From NCBI GenBank assembly GCA_030629005.1, contig DAOVPV010000001.1, positions 57,427 to 121,426 on the forward strand: a stretch of DNA of 64,000 bases, in the 5' to 3' direction. Below, in pieces: positions 1-41,815 of this stretch. How positions within the stretch are numbered: position 1 is the stretch's first letter; each line of letters begins with the position of its first letter. The translations under genes were made by a program, and so were the position numbers. The stretch is from a bacterium (lineage in GTDB: Bacteria; Babelota; Babeliae; Babelales; UASB340). The notes under the pieces are model-generated. The model was not told where the DNA came from and did not search any database. It worked only from the letters and a program-made list of their open reading frames with translations.

Positions 1-72
1 AGAGATATAAGAAAGGATCGATGTACTTAAAATAACAAAAAAAATACCCAACAAAAAAACTATTGCGCTCAT
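1..72 (-). CDS. partial CDS, N-terminus of an unidentified membrane protein (continues beyond window start)
   Basis: minus-strand ATG at 72..70 opens hydrophobic frame MSAIVFLLGIFFVILSTSILSYIS, still open at position 1. Confidence 0.3.
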   Translation of the reverse strand, partial: MSAIVFLLGIFFVILSTSILSYIS

Positions 73-223
73 TTAAACTTTCTTTCGTCATAAAAAACCA
101 TATTTTCAATTAAAAATAACAGTTTTTATGCTTTTTAAAAGTTTTTTGTTGATTTACAGTTGGGAATAATTTACTATTTGTAATAGGGATATGTTTGTAT
201 AAGTAATAAAAAACCGGTGAAAT

Positions 224-760: not shown

Positions 761-768
761 TACAAAAC

Positions 769-1716: not shown

Positions 1717-2084
1717 AATTTTAAACCACCCTTATATAAATCTTTACCAGCAAGAAAGTGCCAATGTAAATGAAAAACAGATTGCCCTGCCGCAGCGCCA
1801 TTATTTGAGATTAAATTAAAAGCGACAGGCTCAGTCAAATTGCTCTCTTGCCTAATCTTTTTAGAAAGATCTCTTGCAACGGCAACCATGTCCGCGATAA
1901 TTCCCAAATCATCATCACCAATAAAATTTATATTTTCAACATGCTTTTTAGAAAGAATTAAGTAATGATAAGGAGCCTTTGGATGGAGATCCTCTATAAC
2001 CAAAACTCTTTCTGTTTCGTATATAATGTTACTCGGAATCTCTTTATTGATTATTTTACAAAAAATACAATTCTGTTCGAACAC
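1713..2084 (-). CDS. HIT (histidine triad) family nucleotide hydrolase/transferase
   Basis: CIFCKII N-terminal motif and histidine triad HLHWHFL near the C-terminus. Confidence 0.9.
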   Translation of the reverse strand: MFEQNCIFCKIINKEIPSNIIYETERVLVIEDLHPKAPYHYLILSKKHVENINFIGDDDLGIIADMVAVARDLSKKIRQESNLTEPVAFNLISNNGAAAGQSVFHLHWHFLAGKDLYKGGLKL

Positions 2085-2110
2085 TCTTCTTCCCTAAAAA
2101 TATAAAAAGT

Positions 2111-2150
2111 CACCTGGCCGTGCCAGCCATAGCTGCTTTGCAGCGACGGC
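2111..2150. repeat. GC-rich trailer directly 3' of tRNA-Leu
   Basis: minus-strand reading after CCA: GCCGTCGCTGCAAAGCAGCTATGGCTGGCACGGCCAGGTG; sharp GC island in AT-rich DNA. Confidence 0.6.
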
Positions 2151-2237
2151 TGGTGCCGAAGGTCGGACTCGAACCGACACAGTGTCACCACTACGAGATT
2201 TTGAGTCTCGCGCGTCTACCAATTTCGCCACTTCGGC
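2151..2237 (-). tRNA. tRNA-Leu (anticodon CAA), CCA encoded
   Basis: reverse complement GCCGAAGTGGCGAAATTGGTAGACGCGCGAGACTCAAAATCTCG..GGTTCGAGTCCGACCTTCGGCACCA; long variable arm; anticodon loop CTCAAAA. Confidence 0.92.
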
Positions 2238-2320
2238 AATAAAAAACTATCGCAAGAATATGCTTTAATCTAACAAAACAGATATTATCGTCAAGAAAAT
2301 TATGGCCCAAATTTCATTAG

Positions 2321-3529
2321 CTATGTTAACATAGCCATATCAAATATAGGCAAATATATTGATAGCAACAGCAAAGAAATAATCAAACCAACAAAAATTA
2401 ATAATATCGGCTGAAATATTACCGTCAAAAGATTCAATTTCTGCCACAATAAACGAGAACAATATTGAGCAGAATTGTTTAACATTAAAGTCAAATTCCC
2501 AGATTTTTCGCCTACACCAACAAAAGCAATAATATCATCTGGAATAGATAAATTGCTCCCTTTCTGTAATGCATACTGCAAGCAAGCTCCACCAATCACA
2601 TCATTTTTAACTTTATACATGTTTTTTTTAATATATATATTATCTATTGTCTCTACAGAAATATCTAAGGCTCTCTTTAAATCAACTCCAGAATCTAAAA
2701 CAATAGCTAAAGACTCGAAAAACCTGGCTAAGTTATAATTGATAAAAATTTTATTTATAAAATAGGTTTTAAAAAACAACCAATCTATGATTTTTTTCAC
2801 CGCCGGCAGCTTAAGTAAAAACCGAATCAACAATAAAAATAAAAGAAATACAATAAAAATAAAAAAACTATACTCTGATCTTAATAACTTACTTATCTTA
2901 AAAACAAATACTGTCGCCTCCGGAAGCTCTTTATCAAAAGAAGTAAAAATAGATTCAAATTGCGGTATAACAAATACAAAAATACCCAGAATCAAAAAAA
3001 ATGAAAAAATAAGAGTCAAAACAGGTAACAACGCTGCGCTCTTTAATTTTTTAATCAACTCACACTTCTTTGTTAAATTATCAAAAATATTTTTAAATGA
3101 ATTTGCCAGTCCTCCAGAGTTTTCTGCAGCAGCAATCATGCTAACTTCTGCCATTGTAAAAACCCCCAAATATTTTTTTAAAGCAACAGAAAAACTATAA
3201 CCCGCCTTTAAATCCTCTATCAAATTTAAAACAACATTCTTAAAATTTTTATGTTTAATTTGCTTTAAAACAAGAGTCAGTGAATCAGCAAGCGGTAATC
3301 CGCTAGACAACAGGATATGTAAATATTCAAAAAAATAAACTTTTTCTTCTCGCTTTATTTTACCTGTAAAAAAATATGAAAAATCAAACCTCTTCTTAGT
3401 ATCCAATAAAGCAATACCTTTTTTTAGTAATCTTTCAGCAAGCAATCGCTCATCCTCAACCTGCTCACAACCACTAACCTCTCGACCATATACATCAATG
3501 CCCCGCCAAAAGAAATTCTTCATAAACAC
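2321..3529 (-). CDS. pilC: type IV pilus / type II secretion platform protein (PilC/GspF family)
   Basis: 402 aa; duplicated T2SS-F type organisation with 3 TM blocks; N-terminus FFWRGIDVYGREVSG..LLKKGIALLD typical of PilC. Confidence 0.85.
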   Translation of the reverse strand: MFMKNFFWRGIDVYGREVSGCEQVEDERLLAERLLKKGIALLDTKKRFDFSYFFTGKIKREEKVYFFEYLHILLSSGLPLADSLTLVLKQIKHKNFKNVVLNLIEDLKAGYSFSVALKKYLGVFTMAEVSMIAAAENSGGLANSFKNIFDNLTKKCELIKKLKSAALLPVLTLIFSFFLILGIFVFVIPQFESIFTSFDKELPEATVFVFKISKLLRSEYSFFIFIVFLLFLLLIRFLLKLPAVKKIIDWLFFKTYFINKIFINYNLARFFESLAIVLDSGVDLKRALDISVETIDNIYIKKNMYKVKNDVIGGACLQYALQKGSNLSIPDDIIAFVGVGEKSGNLTLMLNNSAQYCSRLLWQKLNLLTVIFQPILLIFVGLIISLLLLSIYLPIFDMAMLT

Positions 3530-3549
3530 AATCTCCCACCAAAAGAACT

Positions 3550-3819
3550 TTATTCTTTTAGGCCTAATTTTTTCAACAAGCTTTCATAATCCATATCATT
3601 TACATCTATTTTTATTTTTTTCTTTCTAAAAGTCCGACCAGATATTATACCTATTCGATCATTAGATATTCCAAGTTTTTTTGATAAAAGCTTTATAAGC
3701 TCAGCATTTGCCTTTCCCCGCTCTGGAACACTTTTAAGGTAACACTTTAAAATACCGGATTCTTCTAATACAAATCCCTGTCTACCCGCAGCTGTAATTA
3801 CGCTAATCTCAATAATCAA
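3550..3819 (-). CDS. DUF167 (YggU) family protein
   Basis: 89 aa; motif ERGKANAELIKLLSKKLGISNDRIGIISGRTFRKKKIKI matches the YggU pattern GKAN..L...L......I.I.SG..SR.K. Confidence 0.75.
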   Translation of the reverse strand: MIIEISVITAAGRQGFVLEESGILKCYLKSVPERGKANAELIKLLSKKLGISNDRIGIISGRTFRKKKIKIDVNDMDYESLLKKLGLKE

Positions 3820-3933
3820 AACAAACTCCCTATCATAAAAAATTATTTGCTAATCTTGATTGCCATATAATATATAATTTTTTATAATAGCAAATGAATA
3901 TTTTTACATTATTTGAAATTTTGTATTACTTTC

Positions 3934-4010: not shown

Positions 4011-4047
4011 GTCTTCGCTCCTTCGGAGCTTCGCCTGGCTCGGCCAT
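4011..4047. repeat. GC-rich trailer directly 3' of tRNA-Arg
   Basis: GTCTTCGCTCCTTCGGAGCTTCGCCTGGCTCGGCCATC; shares module CGCTCCTTyGGAGCTTC with 4685-4702. Confidence 0.6.
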
Positions 4048-4094
4048 CTACACATTATAGGTCCAATGGTAACAAAAAATTAAAACGACATTTT

Positions 4095-4124
4095 GTCATC
4101 CTGAATTTATTTCAGGATCCAGTC
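4095..4124 (+). repeat. about 30-bp palindromic repeat (GTCATCCTGAAyTTrTTTCAGGATCCAGTC family)
   Basis: gtcatcctgaatttatttcaggatccagtc; internal hairpin ATCCTGAA/TTCAGGAT; other copies listed separately. Confidence 0.8.
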
Positions 4125-4266: not shown

Positions 4267-4360
4267 CCCTACGCTCTTCGCCTTCGGCTTGTAGCTTCCA
4301 GCCTACGCCCAAGTGGCTACGGCGGACAAGACGGGTGACAGGCCAGTCTACGCCGCTTGG
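4267..4360. repeat. GC-rich mosaic trailer directly 3' of tRNA-Ser(GCU)
   Basis: modules CTACGCTCTTCGCCTTCGGCTTGTAG (4269-4294), CCTACGCCCAAGTGGCTACGGCGGACAAG (4302-4330) and GGGTGACAGGCCAGT (4333-4347), all repeated after the next tRNA-Ser. Confidence 0.7.
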
Positions 4361-4407
4361 AACAAACTACATATGGCACAGCTAGCTTTTTAAAGTTTTT
4401 TAATAAC

Positions 4408-4484
4408 TAGATCCTGAAACGAGTTCAGGATGACAGATTGGCATTGCTTTTTTTGTCATCCTGAATTTATTTCAGAATCCAGTC
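4408..4484. repeat. inverted pair of the 30-bp palindromic repeat
   Basis: reverse copy tagatcctgaaacgagttcaggatgac (4408-4433), 21-nt spacer, forward copy gtcatcctgaatttatttcagaatccagtc (4455-4484). Confidence 0.8.
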
Positions 4485-4543
4485 ATAAAAAAACTCCAAA
4501 TAAAGCACTGAAAAAAAATACCGTAACTAAATAAAATCAAATT

Positions 4544-4635: not shown

Positions 4636-4773
4636 GTCTACGCTCTTCGCCTTCGGCTTGTAGTTTCGGGTGACAGGCCAGTTTACGCTCCTTTGGAGCT
4701 TCCAGCCTACGCCCAAATGGCTACGGCGGACAAGACGTCTGGCATGGCCATCTTTCGCCGCTCGACTTCGCCA
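4636..4773. repeat. GC-rich mosaic trailer directly 3' of tRNA-Ser(UGA)
   Basis: same modules as 4267-4360 in a different order (4638-4663, 4668-4682, 4685-4702, 4706-4734), plus a further GC-rich tail. Confidence 0.7.
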
Positions 4774-4922
4774 ACTTTTAGAACCCAATCCTCTAAAATA
4801 TTCTAAGTCTCAACTAGAAAAATAATCTTTATTCCTTAAATCTAGAAATAAATATTACTTATTTGTTAGCATAACGATTGTATAAATAAAATTACTTTTG
4901 ATATTCAGAAAAGGGAGAAAGT

Positions 4923-5666: not shown

Positions 5667-6290
5667 TTATAAGCTAACTGTTTTAACGAATTTAAATCTT
5701 TTATTTCTAGAATATTTTTCAGCAAGTTGCATAACTCTAACAAAAACAAACAATCCTCTATTTCTAAAAAATCGCTCATTATCAAAGTGATATTCATTAT
5801 ACATAGCATCAAATGTAGGAACTAATTCTAACGGTACAAATTTCTTAAAATTATATTCTAAACCAGAATTCAAATCAGGATTATAATTAACCATAAAACA
5901 ATAAAAAAGTCTTTTTGCTACATTTTTATTTAAATAATGATTAGAAACCAAATAAATTATCATGGATAATAAAACCAAAACCGGAAATAGCTTAAGTATC
6001 TTTTTTCCATCAATTAAATCATCTCCGTTCATAGAACTCAAAATCATAAACTCTATGGGAAGAATAATAGGAATTAACGATACCACAAAAGAAATCCCCG
6101 TAAACCTTTCTCTTGCTTTATCAGAAGATTTTACAAAAACATCTTCCAAAAAATCCCATGGATAAGTTTCGTAATAAGAAATTTCTGCTTTAGTGTAATT
6201 TCTTACAACAAAAGAATTATTTGGTTTTATAACATTAAACGTTCCAAATAATAACAAAATAAAAATTATAGTTTTAAATTTAGTATTCAT
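5667..6290 (-). CDS. hypothetical membrane protein (signal peptide plus 2 TM), paralogous to 11493..12257
   Basis: shared C-terminal motif NYNPDLN..FVPLELVPTFDAMYNEY versus KYNPEIN..LVPEELHETFDDMYQDY. Confidence 0.5.
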   Translation of the reverse strand: MNTKFKTIIFILLLFGTFNVIKPNNSFVVRNYTKAEISYYETYPWDFLEDVFVKSSDKARERFTGISFVVSLIPIILPIEFMILSSMNGDDLIDGKKILKLFPVLVLLSMIIYLVSNHYLNKNVAKRLFYCFMVNYNPDLNSGLEYNFKKFVPLELVPTFDAMYNEYHFDNERFFRNRGLFVFVRVMQLAEKYSRNKRFKFVKTVSL

Positions 6291-6315
6291 AAAAATTCTC
6301 AGATTAAAACATTTG

Positions 6316-6828
6316 TTATTTTATAAAATTTATCCTAACAGTCGGAGTCCACTGCTCTTCTTTTTTAAATAGCTCAACCATTGTATTGGCAAAATCAGAT
6401 ACCTTTATATCTAATTTATCAAACTCCTGATAATCAAATGTATTTAATGCATCTATATCAATAGAAGCGCCACTTACATTTTCATTAGCCAAAATTTCTT
6501 CAAAAAATTTCTGAACTCTTGTCATTCGTGAAAGCAAAGATTCACTTGTGTCTACTTCATATCCACAAACAGTCAAACTTATTCCATCTCCTAAAAACAA
6601 AGCCTCTGCATTTATGTCCATTGGATCATCCGTTAATTCAAAAAGAACCTCATTTTCATTTAAATTCTGCAATATTTCAGAAAAGTTTTTAGCTATATTA
6701 CCACCAAAGTTTGTTCCTATTTTATACTTTACCCCTAATCCTGTAATATTAAATGATAAATCTATTTTTCTATCTAACTCTATAAAATCGCGTTTCAGAA
6801 TTATCTTAACTAAAATTGCTGTACTCAT
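6316..6828 (-). CDS. hypothetical cytoplasmic protein, tandem paralogue 2 (immunity-like candidate)
   Basis: 170 aa, no signal peptide; full-length similarity to 6825..7349 with a near-identical C-terminal region DIDALNTFD.QEFDKLDIKVSDFANTMVELFKK..QWTPTVRINFIK. Confidence 0.55.
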   Translation of the reverse strand: MSTAILVKIILKRDFIELDRKIDLSFNITGLGVKYKIGTNFGGNIAKNFSEILQNLNENEVLFELTDDPMDINAEALFLGDGISLTVCGYEVDTSESLLSRMTRVQKFFEEILANENVSGASIDIDALNTFDYQEFDKLDIKVSDFANTMVELFKKEEQWTPTVRINFIK

Positions 6829-7349
6829 TTTATAAAATTAATCCTAACTGTCGGAGTCCACTGATCATGTTTTTTAAATAACTCAACCATTGTATTGGCA
6901 AAATCAGACACCTTTATATCCAATTTATCAAACTCCTGACCGTCAAATGTATTTAATGCATCTATATCAACAGAAATACCTTTTACATTTTCATTGCCTA
7001 AAAGCTCTTTAAAAAAACACTGCAACCGAGTCATTCTTGAAAATAATGATTCACTTGTATCTATCTTAGACCCAAAAAGAGTCAATGTGATTCCATCACC
7101 TAAAAATAAAATATCTGCATCTGCACTTACTGGACTATCTAATAATTCTATAATTATTTCATTCTGTTGTGCGTCCTTAAGCAAATTATAAAATTTTGGC
7201 GACATATTTGAACCAATATCAAGCCCTAATTTATATTTTAAACCTAAAGAAACCAACCTGAAAGAAAAATCCATTTTTGTTGGGATATTACTTAAATTAT
7301 CTGTGCAATCTATTCTTACTAAAGATTTAATACTCATATTTAAAACCAA
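6825..7349 (-). CDS. hypothetical cytoplasmic protein, tandem paralogue 1 (immunity-like candidate)
   Basis: 174 aa; overlaps the next gene by 4 nt; begins 16 nt after the Hint-protein gene 7366..8412. Confidence 0.55.
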   Translation of the reverse strand: MVLNMSIKSLVRIDCTDNLSNIPTKMDFSFRLVSLGLKYKLGLDIGSNMSPKFYNLLKDAQQNEIIIELLDSPVSADADILFLGDGITLTLFGSKIDTSESLFSRMTRLQCFFKELLGNENVKGISVDIDALNTFDGQEFDKLDIKVSDFANTMVELFKKHDQWTPTVRINFIK

Positions 7350-7365
7350 TTATTTTTAATTTTTA

Positions 7366-8412
7366 CTAATTTAACGGCGTTACCTTATCCTCTATTCGCT
7401 GCCCTTTTTCATTATACTTAAAAGTATGTACATGGCCCTTCTCACTTTTACCTTCTTTAATATGATGTGACCTATACTTGCCGTTTCCTGTATTAATATC
7501 TGCTCTTGTTGCAGGTTTCCCTTCAGAATTATAAACAGTTTTAGACTCAACTGTTGTTTTATCAGCATTATCTAGCTTATAATGCCCAGAATCTGGCTCT
7601 GAAGTCTTTGGAGCCTTTGATGTTCCACTTGTTATGTTACAAGAATCACCTTCGGTTGGTTTATCATCATCGTCGTCGTCATTAGGTCCTTTTCCACCAT
7701 TACCACCACCACTTTCATTTTCAAACAATGAGGGGAAACTATCTTCAATTCCAAACCCAGAAGTATCGACACCTTCTTTCTCTAATTTTTTCTTTACAAT
7801 ATCTGCTAATATTTTTCCTGCAAATACCGCAAGAGTTGTACCTCCAAGCCACTTTACCGCAACACCTCCTACTCCCCAAGAAATAGTAAATAAAGTTAAT
7901 GTAACAGGCTCATTATGAAATAATATATGATTTTCATCATCCATCAAAGCTAAAAATAAACATTTATCCTTTATAGCAATATCATATAGCTTTATTTTTT
8001 TATCGATTTTTTCTGTAAAAATATCTTCTATTACTAAATTACCCAATTCTGGCGAAAATATAACATCACCTTCTTTTAGTTCAGAAGCTCTTACAAACTT
8101 ACAAATTTTACGGTTGTAAATCCTTTGTTTTAGACCATAAATACAAACCCCAGCTTTTGTTTTTATTACAACTAACTTATTTGTCTTTTTTGTTTGTATT
8201 TTTTCTATTTCTTTAGCATCAATTTCTATAGTTTTATCTTTTATACTATAAATTCCAACTAAATCTCCAGCCTTTAAATCCTCAACCTTTTTATGCCCCC
8301 CATCTCCCATTAAAACCTTTGTCCCTGGAAGCATCGCAATTGAAAAATTAAAAGACAAAACAGAAAATAAAATTATAAAAATTATTGCTTTTATATTTTT
8401 TTGCACAAACAA
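7366..8412 (-). CDS. secreted Hint-domain protein with post-Hint glycine-zipper TM segment and orphan C-terminal domain
   Basis: signal peptide (26 aa); Hint blocks MLPGTKVLMGDGGHKKVEDLKAGDLV .. FVRASELKEGDVI .. HILFHN (nt 7912..8334); then WGVGGVAVKWLGGTTLAVFAG; G/D-rich linker; basic C-terminal region. Confidence 0.7.
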   Translation of the reverse strand: MFVQKNIKAIIFIILFSVLSFNFSIAMLPGTKVLMGDGGHKKVEDLKAGDLVGIYSIKDKTIEIDAKEIEKIQTKKTNKLVVIKTKAGVCIYGLKQRIYNRKICKFVRASELKEGDVIFSPELGNLVIEDIFTEKIDKKIKLYDIAIKDKCLFLALMDDENHILFHNEPVTLTLFTISWGVGGVAVKWLGGTTLAVFAGKILADIVKKKLEKEGVDTSGFGIEDSFPSLFENESGGGNGGKGPNDDDDDDKPTEGDSCNITSGTSKAPKTSEPDSGHYKLDNADKTTVESKTVYNSEGKPATRADINTGNGKYRSHHIKEGKSEKGHVHTFKYNEKGQRIEDKVTPLN

Positions 8413-8415
8413 TCC

Positions 8416-9480
8416 TTAATATTTAAAAATTTGTAACTTGGCAACCTTGCCATCACTATTTTTTATTAAACAACCATCAAGACCAACCAAAGGTTCTTCC
8501 AAAACTAAATTATTTAAATCCAAAGAAGAATCTTCACTTATTTTCTCTTTAGCGCTAGGATCTATAAAATTTATATTTAATAAATTAATTGCATCCAATT
8601 CAGACTTAGCCTTTTTTTCTAATAAATAAGAAAATTTAAATGGAAGAAGATTTAAGTTTTTTAAATCTGAAAAAGAACTTAAGTTATAAGAACCCGCCAC
8701 CGATTCAAGTCTATTCGCAACTAAAAAAGAAATTTGCCATACAAATTCTACTAATGCGGCACTAAAAATTGCTGTTTTAGCAAAGTCTTTTAAAAAATTT
8801 TTAGGCTCAAGTAAATTATCAATTTTTTTAAAATCATATGACCAAACAAATAATCTAAAATGCCATCTCAACAAATTACTAATTACCACAGACTCTAATA
8901 AAAATTTTAAATGTTCCTTAGAAAAAATTCTTTTTAAATAAATATTCTTTTGTTTATCAAAGCTCTCCCTAAAAAATAAAGGCTGATCCTTAAGCTTAGC
9001 CAACTCAGAAGTAGCACCACTACTTAAATGAACACTATGTATTTTTTTTATCACAAAAAAATTACCCAAATCCGTAATAGTTTGACCTATTTTTAAATTT
9101 TTGGCTTTAACAAAACGAGCATCTAATATTAACTCAGCTAAAGATTTTAAAGAATTATTTTTTAAATCTTCAAAAGAAGTCTTTTTTATAGTATTTATAA
9201 GCGTTTCATTTATAATCTTTTTAGAAGAAGCATTAGAAAAAATTTGCTCCTCATTAGACAATAAAAATAGTTTTTTTGCACTAAATTTACTTTCTAACTC
9301 AAATAAAACCCATTTAGCACCACACTCAATAACATTAGATTTTAAACCAAATACAACAAAATCATCTGGCGCCTGTTCAGCTTCTACATTCAAGCTTTGT
9401 AATTTAAGAGAATGTTCACCTGCACCAGCATTTAAACTATTAAAAAGTAAAACCAATAAAATAAGTTTCAAAAATTTCAT
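8416..9480 (-). CDS. secreted hypothetical protein, possibly a degenerate Hint-like paralogue
   Basis: signal peptide MKFLKLILLVLLFNSLNA; ARFVKAKNLKIGQTITDLGNFFVIKKI resembles the W..A..LK.GD block of its neighbours; terminal HN absent. Confidence 0.4.
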   Translation of the reverse strand: MKFLKLILLVLLFNSLNAGAGEHSLKLQSLNVEAEQAPDDFVVFGLKSNVIECGAKWVLFELESKFSAKKLFLLSNEEQIFSNASSKKIINETLINTIKKTSFEDLKNNSLKSLAELILDARFVKAKNLKIGQTITDLGNFFVIKKIHSVHLSSGATSELAKLKDQPLFFRESFDKQKNIYLKRIFSKEHLKFLLESVVISNLLRWHFRLFVWSYDFKKIDNLLEPKNFLKDFAKTAIFSAALVEFVWQISFLVANRLESVAGSYNLSSFSDLKNLNLLPFKFSYLLEKKAKSELDAINLLNINFIDPSAKEKISEDSSLDLNNLVLEEPLVGLDGCLIKNSDGKVAKLQIFKY

Positions 9481-9495
9481 AAATTCCCCAATAAA

Positions 9496-10656
9496 TTACA
9501 AACCATAATCACCATCTACGCAATCCTTATCCTTCGCTTCAGGATCATATGGATCATCAACATGAGACCAATCCACCTGCTTATACTCGTAATCATAAGC
9601 ATCATCAACAATCTTATCAACCAACATTCCACCCTTCTTGCAAGCATAAAAAGATTGTCCGAAAACAATCCCAGCAACATCAATATCTTCACTTAAAGTT
9701 GTAATGTAATCTTTAATTTTCTTTAAAAATTTAATAATCGGCTCAGGCAATTTTTCCTTATATTCCGAAAGTGAATTTAAAATCGGCTTTATTATTTCCA
9801 TAAATTTATCTAAAGGGACATGTTCAGATATCTTTTTAACCAAGACGGATGATTCATGAGAAAAATTATCAAGACGATAAAGAACGGATGCGTGTATAGC
9901 AAATCCAAGAAATCCCCCAACCAAAACACCCACAAGGGTAGCTTTTGCAACCGTTTTTACAGATAATATACCTTTCTTATGAGACTTCCATGCTGCATAA
10001 CCACCACCTGCAATACCACCAATTAAAGCACCAATCCAGATACAAGTCAAAACACCAATATTATGAGTTAGAACATAATGACCTTCACTATCTATTAAAT
10101 AAAAAGTGTGATGCTCTTTCAATGAAAGTTCAACCAAATCAACTTTACTGTTAAATTCAACACGCTCTGCTTTAACAACCTCCAATTCATTATATTGCGA
10201 ACCTCTTATTCTATCTCCAACCTTTAAATCCCCCGCGCTAGCCCAAATTGCATTCAAAAAAAGATTTAGGTATTTTTCTTTACCTTTTTTTATACTATTT
10301 ATTAACTTTGGTTTTAACTTATGTAAAACATCCATTCTATAAAACTTTTGGTCCTCCCCAACCATTAATAAACCAGATTTACCATCGCTATCTCTCAACT
10401 CAAGTAAAATTGCAGATTTTGTACCACCATCTTTTACCATTAAATCAAGAACTTCTGTTTTATACAAACGACATTCTTCTTGATCTTCAGCCATTGATAT
10501 AACAGTGTCACCCTTCTTTAAATCTTGAACCATTTTAAATTCATTTTTACCCGTTTCAACAATAGACTCCGGAAGAAGGCCTGCAACAACGGTTCTTGAA
10601 TTTAACAAAAGCAGAATAAATAAAATTTTATAAAAAATACTTTTTACGTAAAACAC
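9496..10656 (-). CDS. secreted Hint-domain protein with post-Hint glycine-zipper TM segments and orphan C-terminal domain
   Basis: signal peptide; Hint blocks LLPESIVETGKNEFKMVQDLKKGDTV .. IWASAGDLKVGDRI .. HHTFYLIDSEGHYVLTHN (nt 10060..10578); then GALIGGIAGGGYAAW and LVGVLVGGFLGFAI. Confidence 0.75.
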   Translation of the reverse strand: MFYVKSIFYKILFILLLLNSRTVVAGLLPESIVETGKNEFKMVQDLKKGDTVISMAEDQEECRLYKTEVLDLMVKDGGTKSAILLELRDSDGKSGLLMVGEDQKFYRMDVLHKLKPKLINSIKKGKEKYLNLFLNAIWASAGDLKVGDRIRGSQYNELEVVKAERVEFNSKVDLVELSLKEHHTFYLIDSEGHYVLTHNIGVLTCIWIGALIGGIAGGGYAAWKSHKKGILSVKTVAKATLVGVLVGGFLGFAIHASVLYRLDNFSHESSVLVKKISEHVPLDKFMEIIKPILNSLSEYKEKLPEPIIKFLKKIKDYITTLSEDIDVAGIVFGQSFYACKKGGMLVDKIVDDAYDYEYKQVDWSHVDDPYDPEAKDKDCVDGDYGL

Positions 10657-13139: not shown

Positions 13140-13236
13140 TAAGTTACAAGTTTATTATCCCTCTTTAATGAAAAAGGACAAATGCTCTATCAATTGAAAG
13201 TGCGAATTGAAGATAAACTTCACGTTTTTATGATTT

Positions 13237-13257
13237 TCGGAAGAAACATTTAATGTT
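13237..13257 (+). repeat. copy 1 of recurrent motif TCGGAAGAAACATTTAATGTT
   Basis: exact 21-mer; contains the 6-1-6 palindrome AACATT-T-AATGTT; intergenic. Confidence 0.8.
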
Positions 13258-13344
13258 TTGGAATAAAATAAATATAAGCTTACAATGTGTAACAATTTCA
13301 ATGTGTAAACTTTTATCGAACAAGCAGGAAATAACCTTAAGAAA

Positions 13345-15570: not shown

Positions 15571-15740
15571 GGACTTAGACCCCGCATCCAGTGCAGGGTA
15601 ACAAATTCAATAATATTAGACCGTTCGTAAGACCCATTCGACTTCGTGGCAAGCCACTACGCTCAGGGCGAACGGGAAACCGTACAAACCTGACCGTTCG
15701 CCCTGAGCGTAGCAACTTGTTGCGTAGTCGAATGGGTTTT
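15571..15740. repeat. GC-rich long imperfect palindromic element (MITE-like or structured RNA)
   Basis: nested inverted repeats ACCCATTCGACT (15632-15643)/AGTCGAATGGGT (15727-15738) and 19-bp CTACGCTCAGGGCGAACGG (15657-15675)/CCGTTCGCCCTGAGCGTAG (15694-15712); shares CCGTTCGCCCTG with the mutL insert. Confidence 0.7.
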
Positions 15741-15779
15741 ATCAAACTTATTCATATTAACAGCTTAAATAAAGGCTAT

Positions 15780-16164: not shown

Positions 16165-16566
16165 ATGAGGTTTGGAATGAATAATATAAAAAAAATAACA
16201 AAAATAAGCTTAATTCTTGTATTTGGATTGCTAATAACAAAAGCATATTCAAGAAACTTTGATGGAACCGGTCCAAGAGGATTCGGTCCAAAAACCGGTT
16301 TAGAACAGGGAGACTGCCAAGAACCCAACAAAAATCAACCTAAAACGGAACGTTTTGGTCGTAAACAACGAAGAAATTATAAACAAAGACAAGATTTTAA
16401 AAGAAATAATACAAGAAATGGTGGACTTGGCTTAGGAATCAATCGCAATAAAAATCTTAATTCACAAAAAAAGATTAAAGCGTTAAAATCACATCAAATT
16501 GAAGTTCAAAAAAAGATTGATGATTTATCGGAAGAAACATTTAATATTAATGAAAATTTAAAATAA
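16165..16566 (+). CDS. DUF5320-like protein with N-terminal signal/anchor sequence
   Basis: ITKISLILVFGLLITKAYS then RNFDGTGPRGFGPKTGLEQGDC (same motif as the upstream gene); C-terminal coiled coil. Confidence 0.65.
   Translation: MRFGMNNIKKITKISLILVFGLLITKAYSRNFDGTGPRGFGPKTGLEQGDCQEPNKNQPKTERFGRKQRRNYKQRQDFKRNNTRNGGLGLGINRNKNLNSQKKIKALKSHQIEVQKKIDDLSEETFNINENLK
16528..16548 (+). repeat. copy 2 of recurrent motif (TCGGAAGAAACATTTAATATT, 1 mismatch)
   Basis: inside the 3' end of 16165..16566, ending 20 nt before the DUF134 start codon. Confidence 0.7.
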
Positions 16567-16567
16567 A

Positions 16568-16843
16568 ATGGTTCGCCCAAGAAAAAGACGTTTTTTAAGG
16601 GGAGACCCAAAGGTTTCATATTTCAAACCTAGAGGAATCCCCTTAAGATCTTTAATGGAAATATCTTTAGGCCCAGATGAATTTGAAGCGATCAAGCTTC
16701 ATGACGTTGATGGTCTAAATCAAACCGACTCTGCTAAACAAATGAAAATCTCTCAACCAACATTTGCAAGAATTTTAAACCGAGCATACAAAAAAATCGC
16801 AACTGCACTTGTTGAAGGCAAAGCTATAAAAATAGAAAAGTAG
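16568..16843 (+). CDS. DUF134 (UPF0251) family predicted DNA-binding protein
   Basis: MVRPRKRRFL..FKPRGIP..L..DEFEAIKLHDVDGLNQTDSAKQMKISQPTFARILNRAYKKIATALVEGKAI matches the DUF134 pattern with sigma-region-4-like HTH. Confidence 0.85.
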   Translation: MVRPRKRRFLRGDPKVSYFKPRGIPLRSLMEISLGPDEFEAIKLHDVDGLNQTDSAKQMKISQPTFARILNRAYKKIATALVEGKAIKIEK

Positions 16844-17109: not shown

Positions 17110-17223
17110 GACTGTCCTCCACCGCTCTTACAAGCTATGGCGGACACCTACGACATTTTCTATTTATTATCAAATTAAAACCAACAAAATCACTGGCCCT
17201 GGCCGCCGTAGCCTTGGCGTAGG
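17110..17223. repeat. bipartite GC-rich spacer between tRNA-Gln and the GIY-YIG gene
   Basis: module A 17191-17223 (minus strand CCTACGCCAAGGCTACGGCGGCCAGGGCCAGTG), AT-rich gap, module B 17110-17154 containing GTCCGCCATAGC. Confidence 0.7.
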
Positions 17224-17557: not shown

Positions 17558-17576
17558 TAGGCATTCTTCTTTTATA

Positions 17577-17658
17577 ACTGGATCCTGAAACAAATTCAGG
17601 ATAACACGTGCAAGAAATTATCTAATTTGTCATCCTGAACTTGTTTCAGGATCCAGTC
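17577..17658. repeat. inverted pair of the 30-bp palindromic repeat
   Basis: reverse copy actggatcctgaaacaaattcaggataac (17577-17605), spacer, forward copy gtcatcctgaacttgtttcaggatccagtc (17629-17658). Confidence 0.8.
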
Positions 17659-23945: not shown

Positions 23946-24011
23946 AAACACAAAATCAAGCATTTGATTTTTAAAAAAATATGAACTAATCTGGCCTTCT
24001 TAACAATTTAA

Positions 24012-24032
24012 TCGGAAGAAACATTTAATGTT
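24012..24032 (+). repeat. copy 3 of recurrent motif TCGGAAGAAACATTTAATGTT
   Basis: exact 21-mer; its ATG (24028) is the listed start of ORF 24028..24684. Confidence 0.8.
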
Positions 24033-24684
24033 GAGGACCATACTTATGAATAAAAATATTATTTCTAGCTTATTTTTAATTTTATTACTTAATATTAACA
24101 CATCCGTAAAACCGAAAACAGCCGTAGAAGAACTTCCTGAAGACTTATTTGAAGCTTATGAAGGCAAAGCCAATTCTCAAAAATATAAAAGCTTTAAAGA
24201 ATCCGAAAATTACGAAGACGAAAATACTGAAATAGAAAAATCTAGCGAAAAATTAGTTAAGACTCTAAAATTTCTAAAAAATTCTGAATACAATAAACAA
24301 GCTTCCGAAACTTTAAAAGAATCATTAAAAGAAAGCTCCAAAGAATTAGAATCTCAAGATAGAAAAGAAATCAATGATATTCTAAGAAAATTAATCAATA
24401 TTAAAAAAAACAAAAAAAGTTATTCTGAACAATCTGTAAAAAACACAATCTTAAATTCAATAAACAATTTAACCAGCTCCGTAAAAAATGTAACTAGCTC
24501 TACATCAAAACTAGTCTGTATAACAATAATAATATCTTTCGCATACATGAACAACATGCTTACAAGCCACGTACTCCTAGATATTATAGAAGAATTACAC
24601 TATGTAGTTAGATGGGGAGCATGGATCCAAATTGGAAGAGTTGCTCTTGTATCAATACCAATCATTGGTAGTTTCTTTGCGTAA
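24028..24684 (+). CDS. hypothetical secreted/membrane K/E-rich protein (alternative start 24046)
   Basis: 218 aa; signal-like MNKNIISSLFLILLLNINTSV; charged helical middle; hydrophobic C-terminus. Confidence 0.45.
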   Translation: MLRTILMNKNIISSLFLILLLNINTSVKPKTAVEELPEDLFEAYEGKANSQKYKSFKESENYEDENTEIEKSSEKLVKTLKFLKNSEYNKQASETLKESLKESSKELESQDRKEINDILRKLINIKKNKKSYSEQSVKNTILNSINNLTSSVKNVTSSTSKLVCITIIISFAYMNNMLTSHVLLDIIEELHYVVRWGAWIQIGRVALVSIPIIGSFFA

Positions 24685-24754: not shown

Positions 24755-25375
24755 ATGAAAAAAATATTTATTCTTTTAATCAATCTTTTTTTGCTATTCA
24801 ATTTTGGAATCGCAAAAGAAAAAACAAATCCATTTTCTAAAATAGAAATAACAAGCAACAAAGCCATTGGTAAAAAAGATAACAATCAAGAAAACATTCT
24901 AATCTTTACTTATCTAGAAAATGTGAATATTAATTTTGCAGATAATAGTACAGCAAAGTGTAAAGAGTTAACCATCGAACTTGATACAAAAAAAAAATCA
25001 AACCCTAAAGAAGTAAAAATTACACAAAAAAATATCGATCTTGGTCCGATAACAAAAATAACTTTAAACAAAAATATTTTAATCTCACAAGCTAATAGAA
25101 AAATAAAAGCAGATAACGCAATCTTTTTACCAAATAAAAAAATATGCAATCTTTCCGGGAATATCGAAATAAAACAAGAAAAAAACAATTCTAAAGATCT
25201 ACCAATAACAACAAAATGTAACAAAGCAACTTTAAATTTAGAAACAGATCAAGTTTTATTCGAAGGAAAAACAGATCAACCTGTAAGTACAATAATATCA
25301 TTACAAAATTACCCTAGTCTAATCAAAACAAATAATCGAAAAAAACATTTAATGTTAAAGAAAAAAAATAAATGA
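24755..25375 (+). CDS. periplasmic OstA/LptA-like protein (tentative)
   Basis: signal peptide; repeated beta-strand pattern (IEITSNKAIG.., KCKELTIELD.., KIKADNAIFLPNKKICNLSGNIEI.., KCNKATLNLETDQVLFEGK) as in LptA/LptC-type jellyrolls; located after bamA. Confidence 0.45.
   Translation: MKKIFILLINLFLLFNFGIAKEKTNPFSKIEITSNKAIGKKDNNQENILIFTYLENVNINFADNSTAKCKELTIELDTKKKSNPKEVKITQKNIDLGPITKITLNKNILISQANRKIKADNAIFLPNKKICNLSGNIEIKQEKNNSKDLPITTKCNKATLNLETDQVLFEGKTDQPVSTIISLQNYPSLIKTNNRKKHLMLKKKNK
25336..25356 (+). repeat. copy 4 of recurrent motif (TCGAAAAAAACATTTAATGTT, degenerate left half)
   Basis: palindrome AACATTTAATGTT intact; ends 15 nt before the mutL ATG. Confidence 0.6.
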
Positions 25376-27291
25376 ATAAGATAAAAATATTATCACCCGA
25401 ACAAGCCGCAAAAATTGCAGCTGGAGAAGTTATAGAACGTCCATCTAATATCATAAAAGAAATAATAGAAAACTCTATAGACGCCAAAAGTACACAAATT
25501 AGTTTATACATAAAAGAAGCCGGCAAAAAATTAATTAGAATCGTAGACAATGGTACGGGTATGAATTTTAAAGATGCGCTATTGTGCTTTGCAAATCATG
25601 CAACCAGCAAAATAAATTCTATCGATGATTTAGAACAAATAAATTCTTTTGGCTTTAGAGGAGAAGCTCTATCTAGTATTAATGCAGTAAGCAAAGTAAC
25701 TCTTATTACAAAAACTAAATCGCAAGAGTTAGGAACAAAAATAGAATACACTGAAAATAAAGTATTATCCCAAGAAGAAACATCTTGTCCTGTTGGAACA
25801 GATCTACAAGTAAAAGAACTTTTTTACAACATCCCTGCCCGCAAAAAATTTTTAAAACAAGATGAAACAGAATGGAATCAAATTTTAAATATTTTTCAGG
25901 CTTTCTGCTTAAGCAATATTAATATTCACTTTAAATTATTTAAAGATGAAAGAATTGTAATAAATGCACCGGCAACAAAAAAACTACAAGATCGCACAGC
26001 CCAACTCTGGGGGCATAATTTTAGTCAAAATTTAATACAACTTAAAAATGATAGTGCTGATAAAATTGCAGCAAAAAATAATATTAAACTCACAGGCTCA
26101 ATTTCTAATCATAATTTTTGGCGATATGGAAGACAACAAATCTTCTTTTTTGTTAATGGTAGATACATAAAAAATACCGACCTAAACAAAGCATTGTTAA
26201 AGGGCTACACAGGAGTTTTACCCCCAGCAAGATTTCCTGCAGGTTTTATTTTTTTAGACGTTCCTAGTGATTTTGTAGACATCAACGTACATCCCAAGAA
26301 AGAAGAAGTTAGGTTTTTAAAACCAAATACCGTATCAAATATATTACAAAGATTTGTTAAAGAAACTTTAGATAGTAACGTTAGAAGTTTATTTGGTAGA
26401 GATGACAATGTTATGAATCCTAATATAGCTGTACCGTTTGATGAAAAAACAAACAGCTCCCCGTTCGCCCTGCCGTGCCCGACGAAGCCTTGCGCGAAGT
26501 CTGGGAGTAACCAACATAGCGTTAGCGAAGGTGGTTGTATCGAAGGGTCTAACCGAACGGCCCAAGCTCCACTTAACCTCAACACCTTTTACAATCCTAA
26601 TCAAGAATTAACAGAAACAAAAATTAGACAAAATACTCTTCGCCCACGCGAATTGGAATATGAGAAAACACAAACAACAATTTCTTCTCAAGAGAGCTCT
26701 CAACCAGAAGCAAATTTTAAAATAATTGGACAATATCTAAAAACATATATAATCACTCAAAATGGCGATAACTTAATTATTCTTGATCAACACGCAGCAC
26801 ATGAGCGAATAATCTATGATGAAATAACAAAAAACTTTGAGCAAAAATCTGGAATCAAATCAATGTTTCCTGAAATAATCAACTTAAATTCCCAGGAAAT
26901 AGAAAAAATAACTCTGGCACAAGAATTTTTATTAAACCAGGGGATAGGAATCGAAGTCTTTGGTAAAAACCAAATCGCCATAAAATCTAGTCCACCCAAA
27001 ATACAAAATCAATCCTTAAAAGAGCTAATTTTTGAAATCTTAGAGTTTATAAAAGAAAATGAAGCTCTAGATCAAGAAATATTCAGAAAAAAGCTCAACG
27101 ATAGAATACATGCTCAAATTGCATGCAAATCTGCAGTCAAAGCTGGTGATATTTTAACATTTGAGCAAATGGAAGAAATCGTTAAAAAACTACAAAAAAC
27201 TCAAAACCTTCTAACTTGCCCTCATGGCCGGCCAACAACATGGATTTTGAATAAACATAATATTGAAAAACAATTTAAAAGAAAATTGTAA
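25372..27291 (+). CDS. mutL: DNA mismatch repair protein MutL (endonuclease type) with in-frame GC-rich insert in the linker
   Basis: GHKL ATPase N-terminus (IAAGEVIERPSNIIKEIIENSIDA, DNGTGM, FGFRGEAL); C-terminal DQHAAHERIIYDE endonuclease motif; ATGA overlap with the upstream gene. Confidence 0.95.
   Translation: MNKIKILSPEQAAKIAAGEVIERPSNIIKEIIENSIDAKSTQISLYIKEAGKKLIRIVDNGTGMNFKDALLCFANHATSKINSIDDLEQINSFGFRGEALSSINAVSKVTLITKTKSQELGTKIEYTENKVLSQEETSCPVGTDLQVKELFYNIPARKKFLKQDETEWNQILNIFQAFCLSNINIHFKLFKDERIVINAPATKKLQDRTAQLWGHNFSQNLIQLKNDSADKIAAKNNIKLTGSISNHNFWRYGRQQIFFFVNGRYIKNTDLNKALLKGYTGVLPPARFPAGFIFLDVPSDFVDINVHPKKEEVRFLKPNTVSNILQRFVKETLDSNVRSLFGRDDNVMNPNIAVPFDEKTNSSPFALPCPTKPCAKSGSNQHSVSEGGCIEGSNRTAQAPLNLNTFYNPNQELTETKIRQNTLRPRELEYEKTQTTISSQESSQPEANFKIIGQYLKTYIITQNGDNLIILDQHAAHERIIYDEITKNFEQKSGIKSMFPEIINLNSQEIEKITLAQEFLLNQGIGIEVFGKNQIAIKSSPPKIQNQSLKELIFEILEFIKENEALDQEIFRKKLNDRIHAQIACKSAVKAGDILTFEQMEEIVKKLQKTQNLLTCPHGRPTTWILNKHNIEKQFKRKL
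26455..26570 (+). repeat. GC-rich palindromic element inserted in frame within mutL
   Basis: abrupt GC island; termini CCGTTCG (26461)/CGAACGG (26560) are inverted; AGCTCC occurs on both sides (26455-26460, 26565-26570); encodes SSPFALPCPTKPCAKSGSNQHSVSEGGCIEGSNRTAQAP. Confidence 0.7.
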
Positions 27292-38971: not shown

Positions 38972-40319
38972 CTATTTAACAATCTTACCTTCCTTAACAA
39001 GCCTATGAAACTTATTTCCAACAAAAAAAGCAATAACAACCCAAATGCTAACCAAACCTAAAGAAAGAATTGTACCATAATACAATAAAGCGATAGGAGT
39101 TCTCTTTAGAAATTCATTAAAACCGGAACCCATTGCCTTTGCACCCCTTGCACCAAACATATCAATCCAACCCTTAGCCTTAAACTTTGCATCACGACTA
39201 GTTGGAATATACACAACCTCTTTTGCCGGATTATTTAAAGCATAACTTAAACCTTTAGCGATAACTACAACACCAAAAGTAAGCCAAAGCATATTTTGTC
39301 CTGTTAAAAGATCCAATTTTATAAAACCATATAAAACTGAAATCGAAACACCTATAGCAATAGGAAACACTAATAACGAAACCCTTATTCCAAACTTCTT
39401 TATTAAATAACCGGTTCCGAAAAGAGCAATTACAAGTGCCAAAACATTTGTAGCCATCCCAAACATTCCCATAAAGGAAGTTAAACCCTCTCTTGTTGCA
39501 TACTCTGGCAATGCTTGCGCCTGCATCTTCATTTGATAATCAACAATTGTTGTTACTATTTCATAAAACGCTACAAGTAGAAAAACACCAAATAAATATG
39601 GTCTCGTAGTAACCAACTTCAAACCTCTGAAAAAGCCTGTTTTCCTCTCTGAAGGTAAATCTTGTTTTCCACCAATCAACTCATCTTCCGGCATAACCAT
39701 TCTAAAGTGACGAATAACTAACATAACAGCCACAATACATAGTGTTGCAATGGCAAATAACAATGGTAAACCCAATAAATGCGCATTCCAAGACAAAAAT
39801 GGACCGATAATTGCACCTAATTGAGCTCCAGCAATAATTAAAAAATATCCTCTTTTTGCAGATGCAGCATCAGTCGTACTTGCAACAAAGGACCAAAAAA
39901 GAGCAATCATAATGGAACCATAACTCTCAATTAAAACATAGGAAACCCAACCCAAAATTTTAATAAATGAATAATAAGAAGATTCCGGTTCACCAAAGGG
40001 AAAAGATATAAATATTGTAAACAGCGCAAAAAAAGTCGCATAGAAAGTTCAAATAATATAAAAAAGCTGATGTCTATGAAACATATCAACTAATTTACTA
40101 TAAACTAAAACTAAAATAGAAATAACAACCAAAGAGAGCATTTTAGCATAAGGCTGGTTCTGCCCGCCGACAACGTTAAAAAAAAAATCCGTCTTTCAAT
40201 GTTTTTAAAAGCCAGTATCCACCAACCGTAAAGAAAAAAGCTAATGCAAGAAGGCTAAATTTCGCTACCTCTTTATTACTTAAATCCTTACCAAAAAACC
40301 TAAAAAACCGCGTAAACAT
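38972..40319 (-). pseudogene. tlc: ATP/ADP translocase (NTT/Tlc) paralogue disrupted by a frameshift and a nonsense codon
   Basis: colinear with 40466..41815 from ATG 40319; +1 frameshift in a 10-nt A run (plus strand 40178-40187) and in-frame TGA at 40051..40049; only the 327-aa tail (38972..39955) remains an ORF. Confidence 0.8.
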
Positions 40320-40465: not shown

Positions 40466-41815
40466 TTACTCAACAATTTTACCTTCAGAAGTTAGACGTT
40501 CGAACTTACTACTTACAAAGAATGCAGCGACAATCCAAAAACCAATAAAACCTAAAGATAAAATTGTACCATAAGCTAACAATGCGTGAGGAGAAGCTTT
40601 TAATGAGTCTGTAAACGCAGCACCCAATGCTTTAGAACTTCTGCTGCCAAACATATCTATCCAACCCTTAGACTTAAATTTAACGTCCTTACTTGTTGGA
40701 ATATACATCATTTCTTTTGCAGGATTATTCAAAGCATAACTAAGTCCTTTAGCGATCATCATAACACCAAAGGTTGCCCATAGCATCATCATAGGATTAA
40801 AGTTACCCCATGAGTAAGATGCATACAGTCCGGCTACGGCAGTACCCAAAACTATTGGAAATGTTAATAAACAAAACCTAAGACCAAGTTTTCTCATCAT
40901 GTAACCAGTACCAAGTAAAGCCATAAGGAAAGCTAAAGTGTTTGCAGCCATACCAAATACACCCAAGAAAGCTGTTAAAGATTCTCTAGAAGCATACTGA
41001 GGCAACGCCTGAGCTTGCATTTTCATTTGATAATCAACAATTGTTCCGACTACTTCATAGATTGTAACAACAGCAAAAATTCCTAATAAATATGGCCTTG
41101 TTAATAAAAGCTTTAACCCCTCCATAAAACCAGTTTTCTTAGCAGTAGAAGTTGTTTCTGGTTTGCCTAGTTCTAGTTGTTCTGTAGGTATAACTGCCAT
41201 AAAACGCTTGACAACAAACATCATCATAACAATTCCAAGACTTCCAATAACAAAAAGAGTCCTTAGTCCCAAGACTTCAGCATTTGTTGCCATGAATGGT
41301 CCGAAAATAGCACCAACCTGGGCACCAACAACAACTAAAGAATAACCTTTTTTTGCTGTTTTTGCATCAGAAACACTAGCCGTAAATGACCAAAAAAGAG
41401 CAACAACTATAGAACCAAAACTTTCTATAATAAAGTAAGTTGCCCAACCAAAAAACTTTAAAATTGAGGGATTTAATGCACCAGGTCCAGAAACCGGCAA
41501 ACCTATAACATAGGCAACTATGGCAAATAAAACAGCATATATGGATCCCAAAACATAAAATAGATTGTGCTTTTTAACAATATCTACAAGTTTTGAATAG
41601 ACCATAACCAGCAAACCAACGATAACAACTGATAACATCTTTGCTGTAGGTTGAAACGTTCCGCCAACTGTACTAAAGAAAAAACCATCTTTTAATGGAC
41701 GCAGTAACCAATAAGTCCCGATTATAAAGAAGAAAGTCATAGAAAGTAACCCATACTTCTTTATCTCGTCATTGTTCAAATCTGGCCAAAAAAACTTGAT
41801 TATCCTGGATAACAT
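40466..41815 (-). CDS. tlc: ATP/ADP translocase (nucleotide transporter, NTT/Tlc family)
   Basis: 449 aa, about 12 TM; family-typical segments LRPLKDGFF, IESFGSIVVALFWSF, YALNNPAKEMMYIPTSKDVKFKSKGWIDMFG as I recall them from rickettsial/chlamydial NTTs. Confidence 0.85.
   Translation of the reverse strand: MLSRIIKFFWPDLNNDEIKKYGLLSMTFFFIIGTYWLLRPLKDGFFFSTVGGTFQPTAKMLSVVIVGLLVMVYSKLVDIVKKHNLFYVLGSIYAVLFAIVAYVIGLPVSGPGALNPSILKFFGWATYFIIESFGSIVVALFWSFTASVSDAKTAKKGYSLVVVGAQVGAIFGPFMATNAEVLGLRTLFVIGSLGIVMMMFVVKRFMAVIPTEQLELGKPETTSTAKKTGFMEGLKLLLTRPYLLGIFAVVTIYEVVGTIVDYQMKMQAQALPQYASRESLTAFLGVFGMAANTLAFLMALLGTGYMMRKLGLRFCLLTFPIVLGTAVAGLYASYSWGNFNPMMMLWATFGVMMIAKGLSYALNNPAKEMMYIPTSKDVKFKSKGWIDMFGSRSSKALGAAFTDSLKASPHALLAYGTILSLGFIGFWIVAAFFVSSKFERLTSEGKIVE

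Follow-up and report, generated by a model that had tools for sequence, protein, structure and literature searches.

A GC-rich structured repeat carried in frame, apparently as an insertion, in the mutL linker of a Dependentiae bacterium

Why should the mutL gene of an AT-rich bacterium carry, in the middle of its coding sequence, about 110 nt of GC-rich DNA with inverted ends? The question is raised by a 64,000-nt stretch of contig DAOVPV010000001.1 (positions 57,427 to 121,426 of the forward strand; assembly GCA_030629005.1), hereafter called the window, whose best MutL and RpoD relatives are all labelled Dependentiae/Babeliales (TM6). A preliminary description of this DNA had proposed that a palindromic element is inserted in frame in the linker between the N- and C-terminal domains of MutL, and had compared it with the Rickettsia palindromic elements (RPEs). 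The analysis reported here makes it quite probable that positions 26461–26560 are a copy of a small, non-autonomous structured repeat, similar to repetitive extragenic palindromic (REP) sequences and to MITEs (miniature transposable elements with inverted repeats), which lies in sense orientation and is tolerated as a passenger of the MutL linker.

The host gene, mutL (25372–27291, + strand), is intact and encodes 639 amino acids with GHKL ATPase, DNA_mis_repair and MutL_C domains. Pfam matches to PF13589 (HATPase_c_3), PF01119 (DNA_mis_repair) and PF08676 (MutL_C) agree with the definition of a MutL protein; LDQHAAHERIIYDE was found in the translation, and the endonuclease motif DQHA(X)2E(X)4E is present. 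The island within the gene, composed of the element and the AGCTCC repeats on either side of it (26455–26460 and 26565–26570), extends from 26455 to 26570 on the + strand. The GC content of 26400–26599 is 0.49–0.59 in 100-nt windows versus a background of 0.25–0.33, which is as high as over the tRNA genes of the window, and it peaks at 0.625 in 80-nt windows; the element proper has about 60% GC, versus a mean of 30.8% (0.308) for the whole window. The intact open reading frame (ORF) with its ATPase and endonuclease motifs, the abrupt switch from AT-rich to GC-rich DNA, the encoded peptide SSPFALPCPTKPCAKSGSNQHSVSEGGCIEGSNRTAQAP, the inverted termini and the flanking AGCTCC words were all found as the preliminary description had given them.

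The mutL element is a composite member of a family of short structured repeats whose arms, CCGTTCGCCCTG(AG)...TCGAAGGGTC..CGAACGG, are conserved. It begins with the 5' arm CCGTTCGCCCTG (26461–26472, +), the first 7 nt of which, CCGTTCG (26461–26467), are one terminal inverted repeat. An extra hairpin module of 33 nt, CCGTGCCCGA-CGAAGC-CTTGC-GCGAAG-TCTGGG (26473–26505, +), is inserted between CCCTG and AG and defines what is called here the long form. The junction AG (26506–26507, +) is followed by a central hairpin of 32 nt, UA-ACCAAC-AUAGC-GUUA-GCGAAG-GUGGUU-GUA (26508–26539, +), of the family type 'UA...GUA', then by the 3' arm TCGAAGGGTC (26540–26549, +), the spacer TAAC (26550–26553, +) and the second terminal inverted repeat, CGAACGG (26554–26560, +). 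In the predicted fold, an outer helix of CCGTTCG/CGAACGG and CCCT/AGGG encloses the two inner hairpins, and the central hairpin (26506–26541) is the only part that stands out in folding (z = -2.8). The element is open in four of its six reading frames, among them that of mutL, and it adds about 35–39 residues to the linker in sense orientation.

The position of these residues was examined on an AlphaFold model built from a 23-sequence MutL alignment, with a mean predicted local distance difference test (pLDDT) score of 69. The folded domains of the model comprise residues 1–343 and 447–639, whereas residues 344–446 have a pLDDT of about 30 and no secondary structure, and the insert (residues ~362–400) falls inside this region. 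Structure prediction had been proposed as a check in the preliminary description, and it places the insert, as expected there, in a disordered linker. Two further sites at which mutL genes carry insertions (see below) are also loops in the model: one after residue 115, between strands 108–114 and 121–127, and the other at residues 225–238, between strands 221–223 and 239–245. Placement in fold-compatible loops and linkers, as known for RPEs, is thus predicted both for the insert and for the other mutL sites. The reading frame is kept across the element and the MutL domains are collinear with those of orthologues; the insert is probably tolerated in the disordered interdomain linker of an otherwise intact protein.

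The window holds two additional copies. Three occurrences of the 12-mer CCGTTCGCCCTG (26461+, 15694+ and 15664-) compare with 0.01 expected from shuffled sequences. The intergenic occurrences belong to an inverted doublet of short forms, the left half (15621–15675, - strand) reading CCGTTCGCCCTGAG-CGTAGTGGCTTGCCACGAAG-TCGAATGGGTCTTACGAACGG and the right half occupying 15694–15741 (+ strand). The doublet folds with z = -9.5, and both halves share both arms with the mutL copy, so the kinship with this 15.6-kb element that had been suggested from the 12-mer extends beyond it.

Members of the same family were also found in other mutL genes of Dependentiae, the source of the orthologues (DNA loci and proteins are designated L### and P####, respectively, within this analysis). 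The MutL of P0008 (806 aa) carries five copies, confirmed at the DNA level in L001; two, in opposite orientations, are located in a beta-hairpin loop of the ATPase domain, and the linker holds the other three, whose orientations are mixed. Among the five are two long forms with the 33-nt module at an identical internal position. DNA-verified copies were found in the mutL genes of L003 (P0009) and L130 (P0003), a long-form copy in L133 (P0051; contig of 47% GC), a bare basic unit in L136 (P0052), and at least three copies in L135 (P0028) with one more just upstream of the gene. In L134 (P0077) the copy is a variant, in which CCCTGAG/TCGAAGGG is changed to TCCCGAG/TCGAGGGA. The segment is missing at the window site from most of the 22 orthologues aligned with the window MutL. 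Over its first 48 nt, the window copy shows 90%, 90% and 81% identity to the long forms in L001 (two) and L133, whereas identity to the window at third codon positions in the flanking mutL domains is only 51–54% (L001) and 30% (L133). Nucleotide identity so far above third-codon identity indicates recent derivation from a conserved source, or constraint at the nucleotide level, rather than an old neutral linker. Judged from the sequences compared, the mutL segment is an insertion and not native linker.

Two other repeat-rich structures were observed at mutL loci of relatives. A near-perfect palindrome of about 190 nt, composed of TGTCATCCCGGACTTGATCCGGGATC-type units, is located at 2301–2494 of L001, upstream of the multiply decorated P0008 mutL; it gave spurious matches to plant miRNAs in Rfam. 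In L132, the linker of the P0010 mutL contains a composite GC-rich block of 246 nt (8192–8437; 68% GC) with units including the CCGTTCGTCCCG and GTCATCCCGG... types, which suggests that different repeat families pile up at one permissive site.

The family extends well beyond Dependentiae. A scan of one genome per species with the pattern CCGTTYGCCCTG-N15-45-TCGAAKGGKY returned at least 120 stretches; about 30–40 would be expected under uniform base composition by our own estimate, so that chance matches must be included among them. Three features outside the positions specified by the pattern indicate that matches are genuine. The dinucleotide AG directly follows CCCTG in 116 of 131 matches among those listed. 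Columns 19 and 47, also unspecified, covary in 48 simple copies (CG in 24, GC in 14 and UA in 10, with no unpaired case). The central segments are hairpins of very diverse sequence, including an AT-rich one in Dependentiae locus L018. The identical 12-mer CCGTTCGCCCTG was found in more than 120 stretches of other genomes. Hosts among the matches listed include Sphingomonadales, Burkholderiales, genera of the Xanthomonadales type, Legionella and Nitrospira, as well as Dehalococcoidia, Verrucomicrobia, Myxococcota and Campylobacterota, with at least eight phyla in all, and several of these genomes gave more than one locus or copies in tandem. Of 16 copies in genomes with less than 46% GC, 14 are intergenic. 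Five of six matches in IMG/VR viral contigs also look genuine, and one of the contigs (L139) has, between CCCTG and AG, a CGTAGC...GCGAAG hairpin, as in the long-form architecture of the window copy. The family is thus not restricted to one lineage, a correction to the preliminary description.

The simplest member of the family, or basic unit, is CCGTTCGCCCTGAGCYTGTCGAAGGG. When it is translated in six frames, one strand gives PFALSLSKG and VRPELVEG, and the other gives LRQAQGER, FDKLRANG and STSSGRT. The family is the source of peptides of the PFALSLSKG, LRQAQGER and FDKLRANG type, which frequently turn up in spurious ORFs from metagenome assemblies. At gathering thresholds, Rfam matched only tRNAs and the transfer-messenger RNA (tmRNA) in the window, and a permissive E-value scan of eight element-carrying loci returned only generic-hairpin noise. 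No relevant text was retrieved by full-text literature searches with DNA or peptide words from the element. A MAFFT alignment lost the register of the inner stem, and per-sequence folding with an explicit count of base pairs was used instead of a covariance model. As far as these sequence comparisons and searches reach, this appears to be a family with near-invariant arms and a covarying hairpin, distributed over at least eight phyla, which lies outside Rfam and for which no description was found.

Three known structures were considered and rejected. A hammerhead ribozyme was suggested by CUGAG...CGAAG; in comparison with the hammerhead consensus, the counterpart of the essential G8 is variable and paired, and the 3' core differs. 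An integron attC site was suggested by GTCTAAC, which resembles RYYYAAC; the core sites would not be ordered correctly, and the TCTAAC spacer differs between copies. Translational bypass between the AGCTCC repeats was also discarded, because the element is open in frame and the landing would meet ACT TAA.

Within Dependentiae, copies in genes are concentrated in mutL. Signature peptides of the family were found in 9–10 of the 120 best MutL matches, eight of them verified at the DNA level, and three to five further MutL proteins of the same set carry other GC-rich repeats. RpoD, which also has a long and variable N-terminal region, carries the family in none of 120 orthologues, four regular-expression matches being a conserved RpoD motif; the difference in carriage between MutL and RpoD is significant (Fisher p = 0.0016). 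Among the other genes of the Dependentiae loci fetched, about 1 of 160 carries the family. In these loci (~200 kb), the only copies outside mutL are the window doublet, the one upstream of the L135 mutL and two in L136, of which one is intergenic and one in frame. The latter lies in reverse orientation in an unrelated 462-aa ORF, where it reads ...ITLRQAQGDRE.... The bias towards mutL may reflect tolerance of loops and linker, weaker selection on mismatch repair in an intracellular lineage, or hitch-hiking of altered mismatch-repair alleles.

In-frame palindromic repeats and a bias of repeats towards repair genes are already known, and the mutL element is a further example. The classic example of in-frame insertion of palindromic repeats into coding genes is provided by the RPEs (Ogata et al., 2000, reviewed in PMC10969869). 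Like RPEs, the present repeat is a short repeat of an intracellular, AT-rich bacterium which is inserted in frame, encodes a peptide at fold-compatible sites and is also found between genes. Compared with RPEs by description only, it occurs in another phylum, is about 100 nt rather than about 150 nt in length, has arms common to many phyla, and is concentrated in mutL with one other coding sequence seen, whereas RPEs occur in many unrelated genes. The parallel drawn in the preliminary description holds for in-frame copies in both orientations, at several mutL sites and once in an unrelated ORF, but appears not to extend to an RPE-like spread over many genes.

A second parallel is offered by the REPs. 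Those of more than 80 species in eight phyla were assigned to GTAG- and CGTC-tagged superfamilies, and RPE-4, RPE-6 and neisserial dRS3 were equated with CGTC REPs (Di Nocera et al., 2013; PMC3733652). According to the same study, intragenic REPs are found disproportionately in replication and repair genes (uvrABCD, recBCD, polA, dnaE2 and ligase), which are often the sole decorated coding sequences of a species, and the authors speculated on mutator phenotypes. Neither mutL nor mutS is mentioned in that paper, and the peptides of the present family are missing from its supplements. The present family appears to resemble these REPs in being a small hairpin repeat that is mostly intergenic, often arranged as inverted dimers, distributed across phyla and present in repair genes; many members also carry GTAG or CGTC beside the central hairpin. 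In contrast, its conserved arms of 12–14 nt and 9–10 nt with tandem G.A pairs lie outside the published REP definition. The central hairpins of the family have the dimensions of the REP palindrome (20–40 nt, stem of 6–9 bp, loop of 4–5 nt), the hairpin of the window copy being interrupted by mismatches. Where a REP tag would be sought, the window copy has GAG-TAAC (GTAA) and GTA-TCGAAGG, with neither a stem starting with AT nor a CCA tail. Its copy number in the 64-kb window is three, with one inverted dimer.

A second repeat family in the window, TGTC-ATCCTGAA-loop-TTCAGGAT-CCA, shows every published feature of CGTC-tagged REPs. It is intergenic and often arranged in inverted pairs, with copies at 4094–4121, 4396–4439 (reverse complement), 4454–4493, 17567–17606 (reverse complement), 17628–17655 and 61927–61962. 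The same family is also found in frame, as CHPELVSGSS, in the MutL of the relatives P0004 and P0009.

Systems consisting of REPINs and REP-associated tyrosine transposases (RAYTs) are said to have been described by Nunvar in 2010 and by Bertels and Rainey in 2011. They share with the present family inverted hairpin doublets, like the one at 15.6 kb, and the lack of target duplication. They differ in that REPINs are usually species-specific in sequence, whereas the present arms are conserved across phyla, and no RAYT was found among the window ORFs scanned. Of the features of MITEs, the window copy has a 7-nt terminal inverted repeat, CCGTTCG/CGAACGG; no parent insertion sequence was seen in the window. 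QMITE2 of Coxiella is a small REP-cored element for which an influence on the expression of nearby DNA-repair genes was suggested (PMC5896051). Similar to the present element, it belongs to an intracellular bacterium, has full-size and small versions and relatives in distant phyla, and is occasionally in frame in ORFs. QMITE2, compared here by description, differs in having 7–11-nt direct repeats, 23–29-nt terminal inverted repeats and an IS1111 target, none of which is shown for the present element. In yeast mitochondria, mobile GC clusters and 'byp' elements are GC-rich hairpins that invade coding regions of a very AT-rich genome. Those elements break the reading frame and are bypassed by the ribosome, whereas the mutL element is in frame and bypass is neither needed nor possible. 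Palindromic or GC-rich repeats are not mentioned in the Babela and Chromulinavorax genome papers, nor were they found by full-text search.

In the mechanism proposed for the present family, the arms CCGTTCGCCCTG(AG) and TCGAAGGGTC would pair through CCCU/AGGG and tandem G.A/A.G, extended in Dependentiae by the terminal inverted repeat CCGTTCG/CGAACGG, and would enclose a variable hairpin to which the long form adds its module between CCCTG and AG. As the copies described above show, the family normally lies between genes, in multiple copies, in many phyla, and within Dependentiae it has entered mutL repeatedly at three loop or linker sites. Spread may proceed through a hairpin-recognising, single-strand enzyme of the RAYT/HUH type acting in trans, or through recombination between copies, rather than through classical cut-and-paste with target duplication; the missing target duplication, the inverted dimers and the GTAG/CGTC-like tags of many members point in this direction. 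By analogy, mobilisation in trans by a single-copy HUH tyrosine transposase would be the most plausible mechanism. The over-representation of mutL would follow from loops and a linker that tolerate inserts, and possibly also from hitch-hiking of altered mismatch-repair alleles.

Several results weigh against a mobile passenger. A consistent target-site duplication was absent from all the copies compared. The AGCTCC direct repeat flanks the window copy only, and a 110-nt insertion bounded by it would be out of frame. No transposase-type Pfam match was found in the 40 window ORFs scanned, and mobilisation is purely inferred. The closest orthologues are about 65–70% identical with unalignable linkers, and no empty site is available, so the boundaries and length of the insertion stay approximate. 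The fold of the whole element is no stabler than those of shuffled sequences (RNA z = 0.12; DNA z = -1.1); the earlier label 'palindromic' thus suits the 7-nt terminal inverted repeat, the 4-bp CCCT/AGGG helix and the internal hairpins, but not the element as a whole. The long form with the 33-nt module was found only inside mutL genes (twice in L001 and once in L133), which is odd for a freely dispersing repeat. Likewise, a long-form peptide profile matched only the MutL clusters P0001 and P0008 among 1.84 billion representatives, in a search insensitive to short forms which also returned the spurious repetitive protein P0121. A word-indexed protein search with the 40-aa insert peptide gave no candidate, the type of search being itself limiting. 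Similarly, a metagenome scan with a 21-mer of the 33-nt module gave two chance matches only, in unrelated coding sequence (one hemB-like), in a collection evidently without these genomes. Finally, several loci were chosen for their MutL inserts; the mutL count is thereby inflated, while the near-absence of the family elsewhere is not affected.

The strongest rival explanation is that the element is kept in mutL for a function, for example as a DNA or RNA hairpin that tunes MutL expression or, by being deleted and re-inserted, as the switch of a contingency (mutator-switch) locus, its conservation reflecting selection in place. The element nucleotides are indeed far better conserved than the neutral sites of mutL, mutL is enriched over RpoD and neighbouring genes, the long form is seen nowhere else, up to five copies share one gene, and mutator effects were already raised by Di Nocera and colleagues for REPs in repair genes. 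Both orientations, three sites and two unrelated families (this one and the CGTC-type REPs) in mutL nevertheless fit tolerance better, and most orthologues have no insert at all. Scans for promoters and terminators around the insert found no more signals than expected by chance, and the reading frame is always kept, from which the alleles would probably be active. Such a function is considered unlikely, the tolerated passenger being preferred. Slightly less likely still is a more far-reaching reading, in which CCGTTCGCCCTGAG-hairpin-TCGAAGGG would be an unrecognised, structure-constrained nucleic-acid module of many phyla, with a tandem G.A helix, a covarying closing pair and nested hairpins, and in which the element and altered mismatch-repair alleles would promote each other. 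The capture of mutL would then not be passive, but would proceed, for example, by mutator hitch-hiking or by reversible, hairpin-mediated changes of the linker.

It is much less probable that the segment is a native GC-rich MutL linker, or an ancient, vertically inherited insertion that has become ordinary coding sequence. Related elements are located at roughly similar linker positions in P0003, P0008 (copy c5) and P0051, so that one old insertion with many losses at the site is conceivable. However, the segment is missing from most orthologues, including P0006 and P0007, which are close to the window protein by alignment (no tree), and the same sequence is found between genes and at other positions and orientations. 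The 81–90% nucleotide identity of the copies, set against 30–54% for third codon positions, cannot be reconciled with neutral decay under vertical descent. The checks proposed earlier thus fall out in favour of a repeat-family member inserted in frame in the interdomain linker: aligned relatives do not all share a homologous linker.

The least credible alternative is a repeat-induced chimeric join inside mutL, for although repeats can mis-join contigs and the window is divided between two scaffolds in a second assembly from this sample, the junction lies elsewhere, the frame is intact across the element with both MutL domains collinear with orthologues, an identical 639-aa protein is encoded on a 127-kb contig of an ENA assembly (from which the window assembly is, by inference, separate), and analogous in-frame mutL copies come from many independent samples. 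In ENA assembly ERZ23498683, the first genes of the window (1–3900) are located at the end of scaffold_48 and its far end on scaffold_32 (L126 and L128), with the junction near a cluster of tRNA genes and repeats at ~3.9–4.8 kb; this split suggests that the window derives from another assembly of this population, one with greater contiguity.

Other repeats of the window are found at gene ends. GC-rich hairpin trailers directly follow the encoded CCA of the tmRNA gene and of every tRNA gene but tRNA-Met (five of six); they are located at 2109–2150 (-), 4011–4048 (+), 4267–4372 (+), 4636–4790 (+), 17191–17223 (-) and 54675–54706 (-), with the consensus CCA-NNC-TWCGC-loop-GCTWYG-NNGG(-CACGGCCAGG). 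Two parts of the mutL element, its 33-nt module and its central hairpin, match this consensus when reverse-complemented, which suggests that the trailers and the insert share building blocks. Also, a conserved motif of about 25–44 nt, ATCGGAAGAAACATTTAATGTT, recurs at gene ends and starts (13234–13277, 16525–16568, 24009–24052, 25333–25376 and 62754–62796), one copy being directly upstream of the mutL start codon.

Several other features of the window were observed. A block of minus-strand ORFs at 5667–10656 looks like an array of polymorphic-toxin and immunity cassettes; two of its ORFs contain Pretoxin-HINT domains (7366–8412 and 9496–10656), and two tandemly duplicated small ORFs within it (6318–6617 and 6827–7126) are 81% identical. 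Two adjacent TLC ATP/ADP translocase paralogues (38972–39955 and 40466–41815), the DNA of which is 71% identical over 300 nt, would fit a life as an energy parasite of a eukaryotic host. The tmRNA (54707–55089, -) has the predicted tag peptide ANLVNTGIPTGATAVC, with an unusual C-terminus; tmRNA tags commonly end in ...LAA. A 15-nt-periodic repeat at 62830–63017 encodes an Asp/Glu-rich low-complexity stretch in the ORF 62734–63021.

Recognition of the family would help gene callers to avoid false ORFs and annotators to flag decorated proteins. The element extends in-frame selfish DNA in genes from the RPEs of Rickettsia to the phylum Dependentiae. It also adds mutL, the canonical mutator gene, to the unexplained tendency of REPs to occur in replication and repair genes, with an unusual density of up to five copies per gene. 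If the element and altered mismatch-repair alleles do promote each other, this would provide a mechanistic basis for the bias of REPs towards DNA-repair genes.

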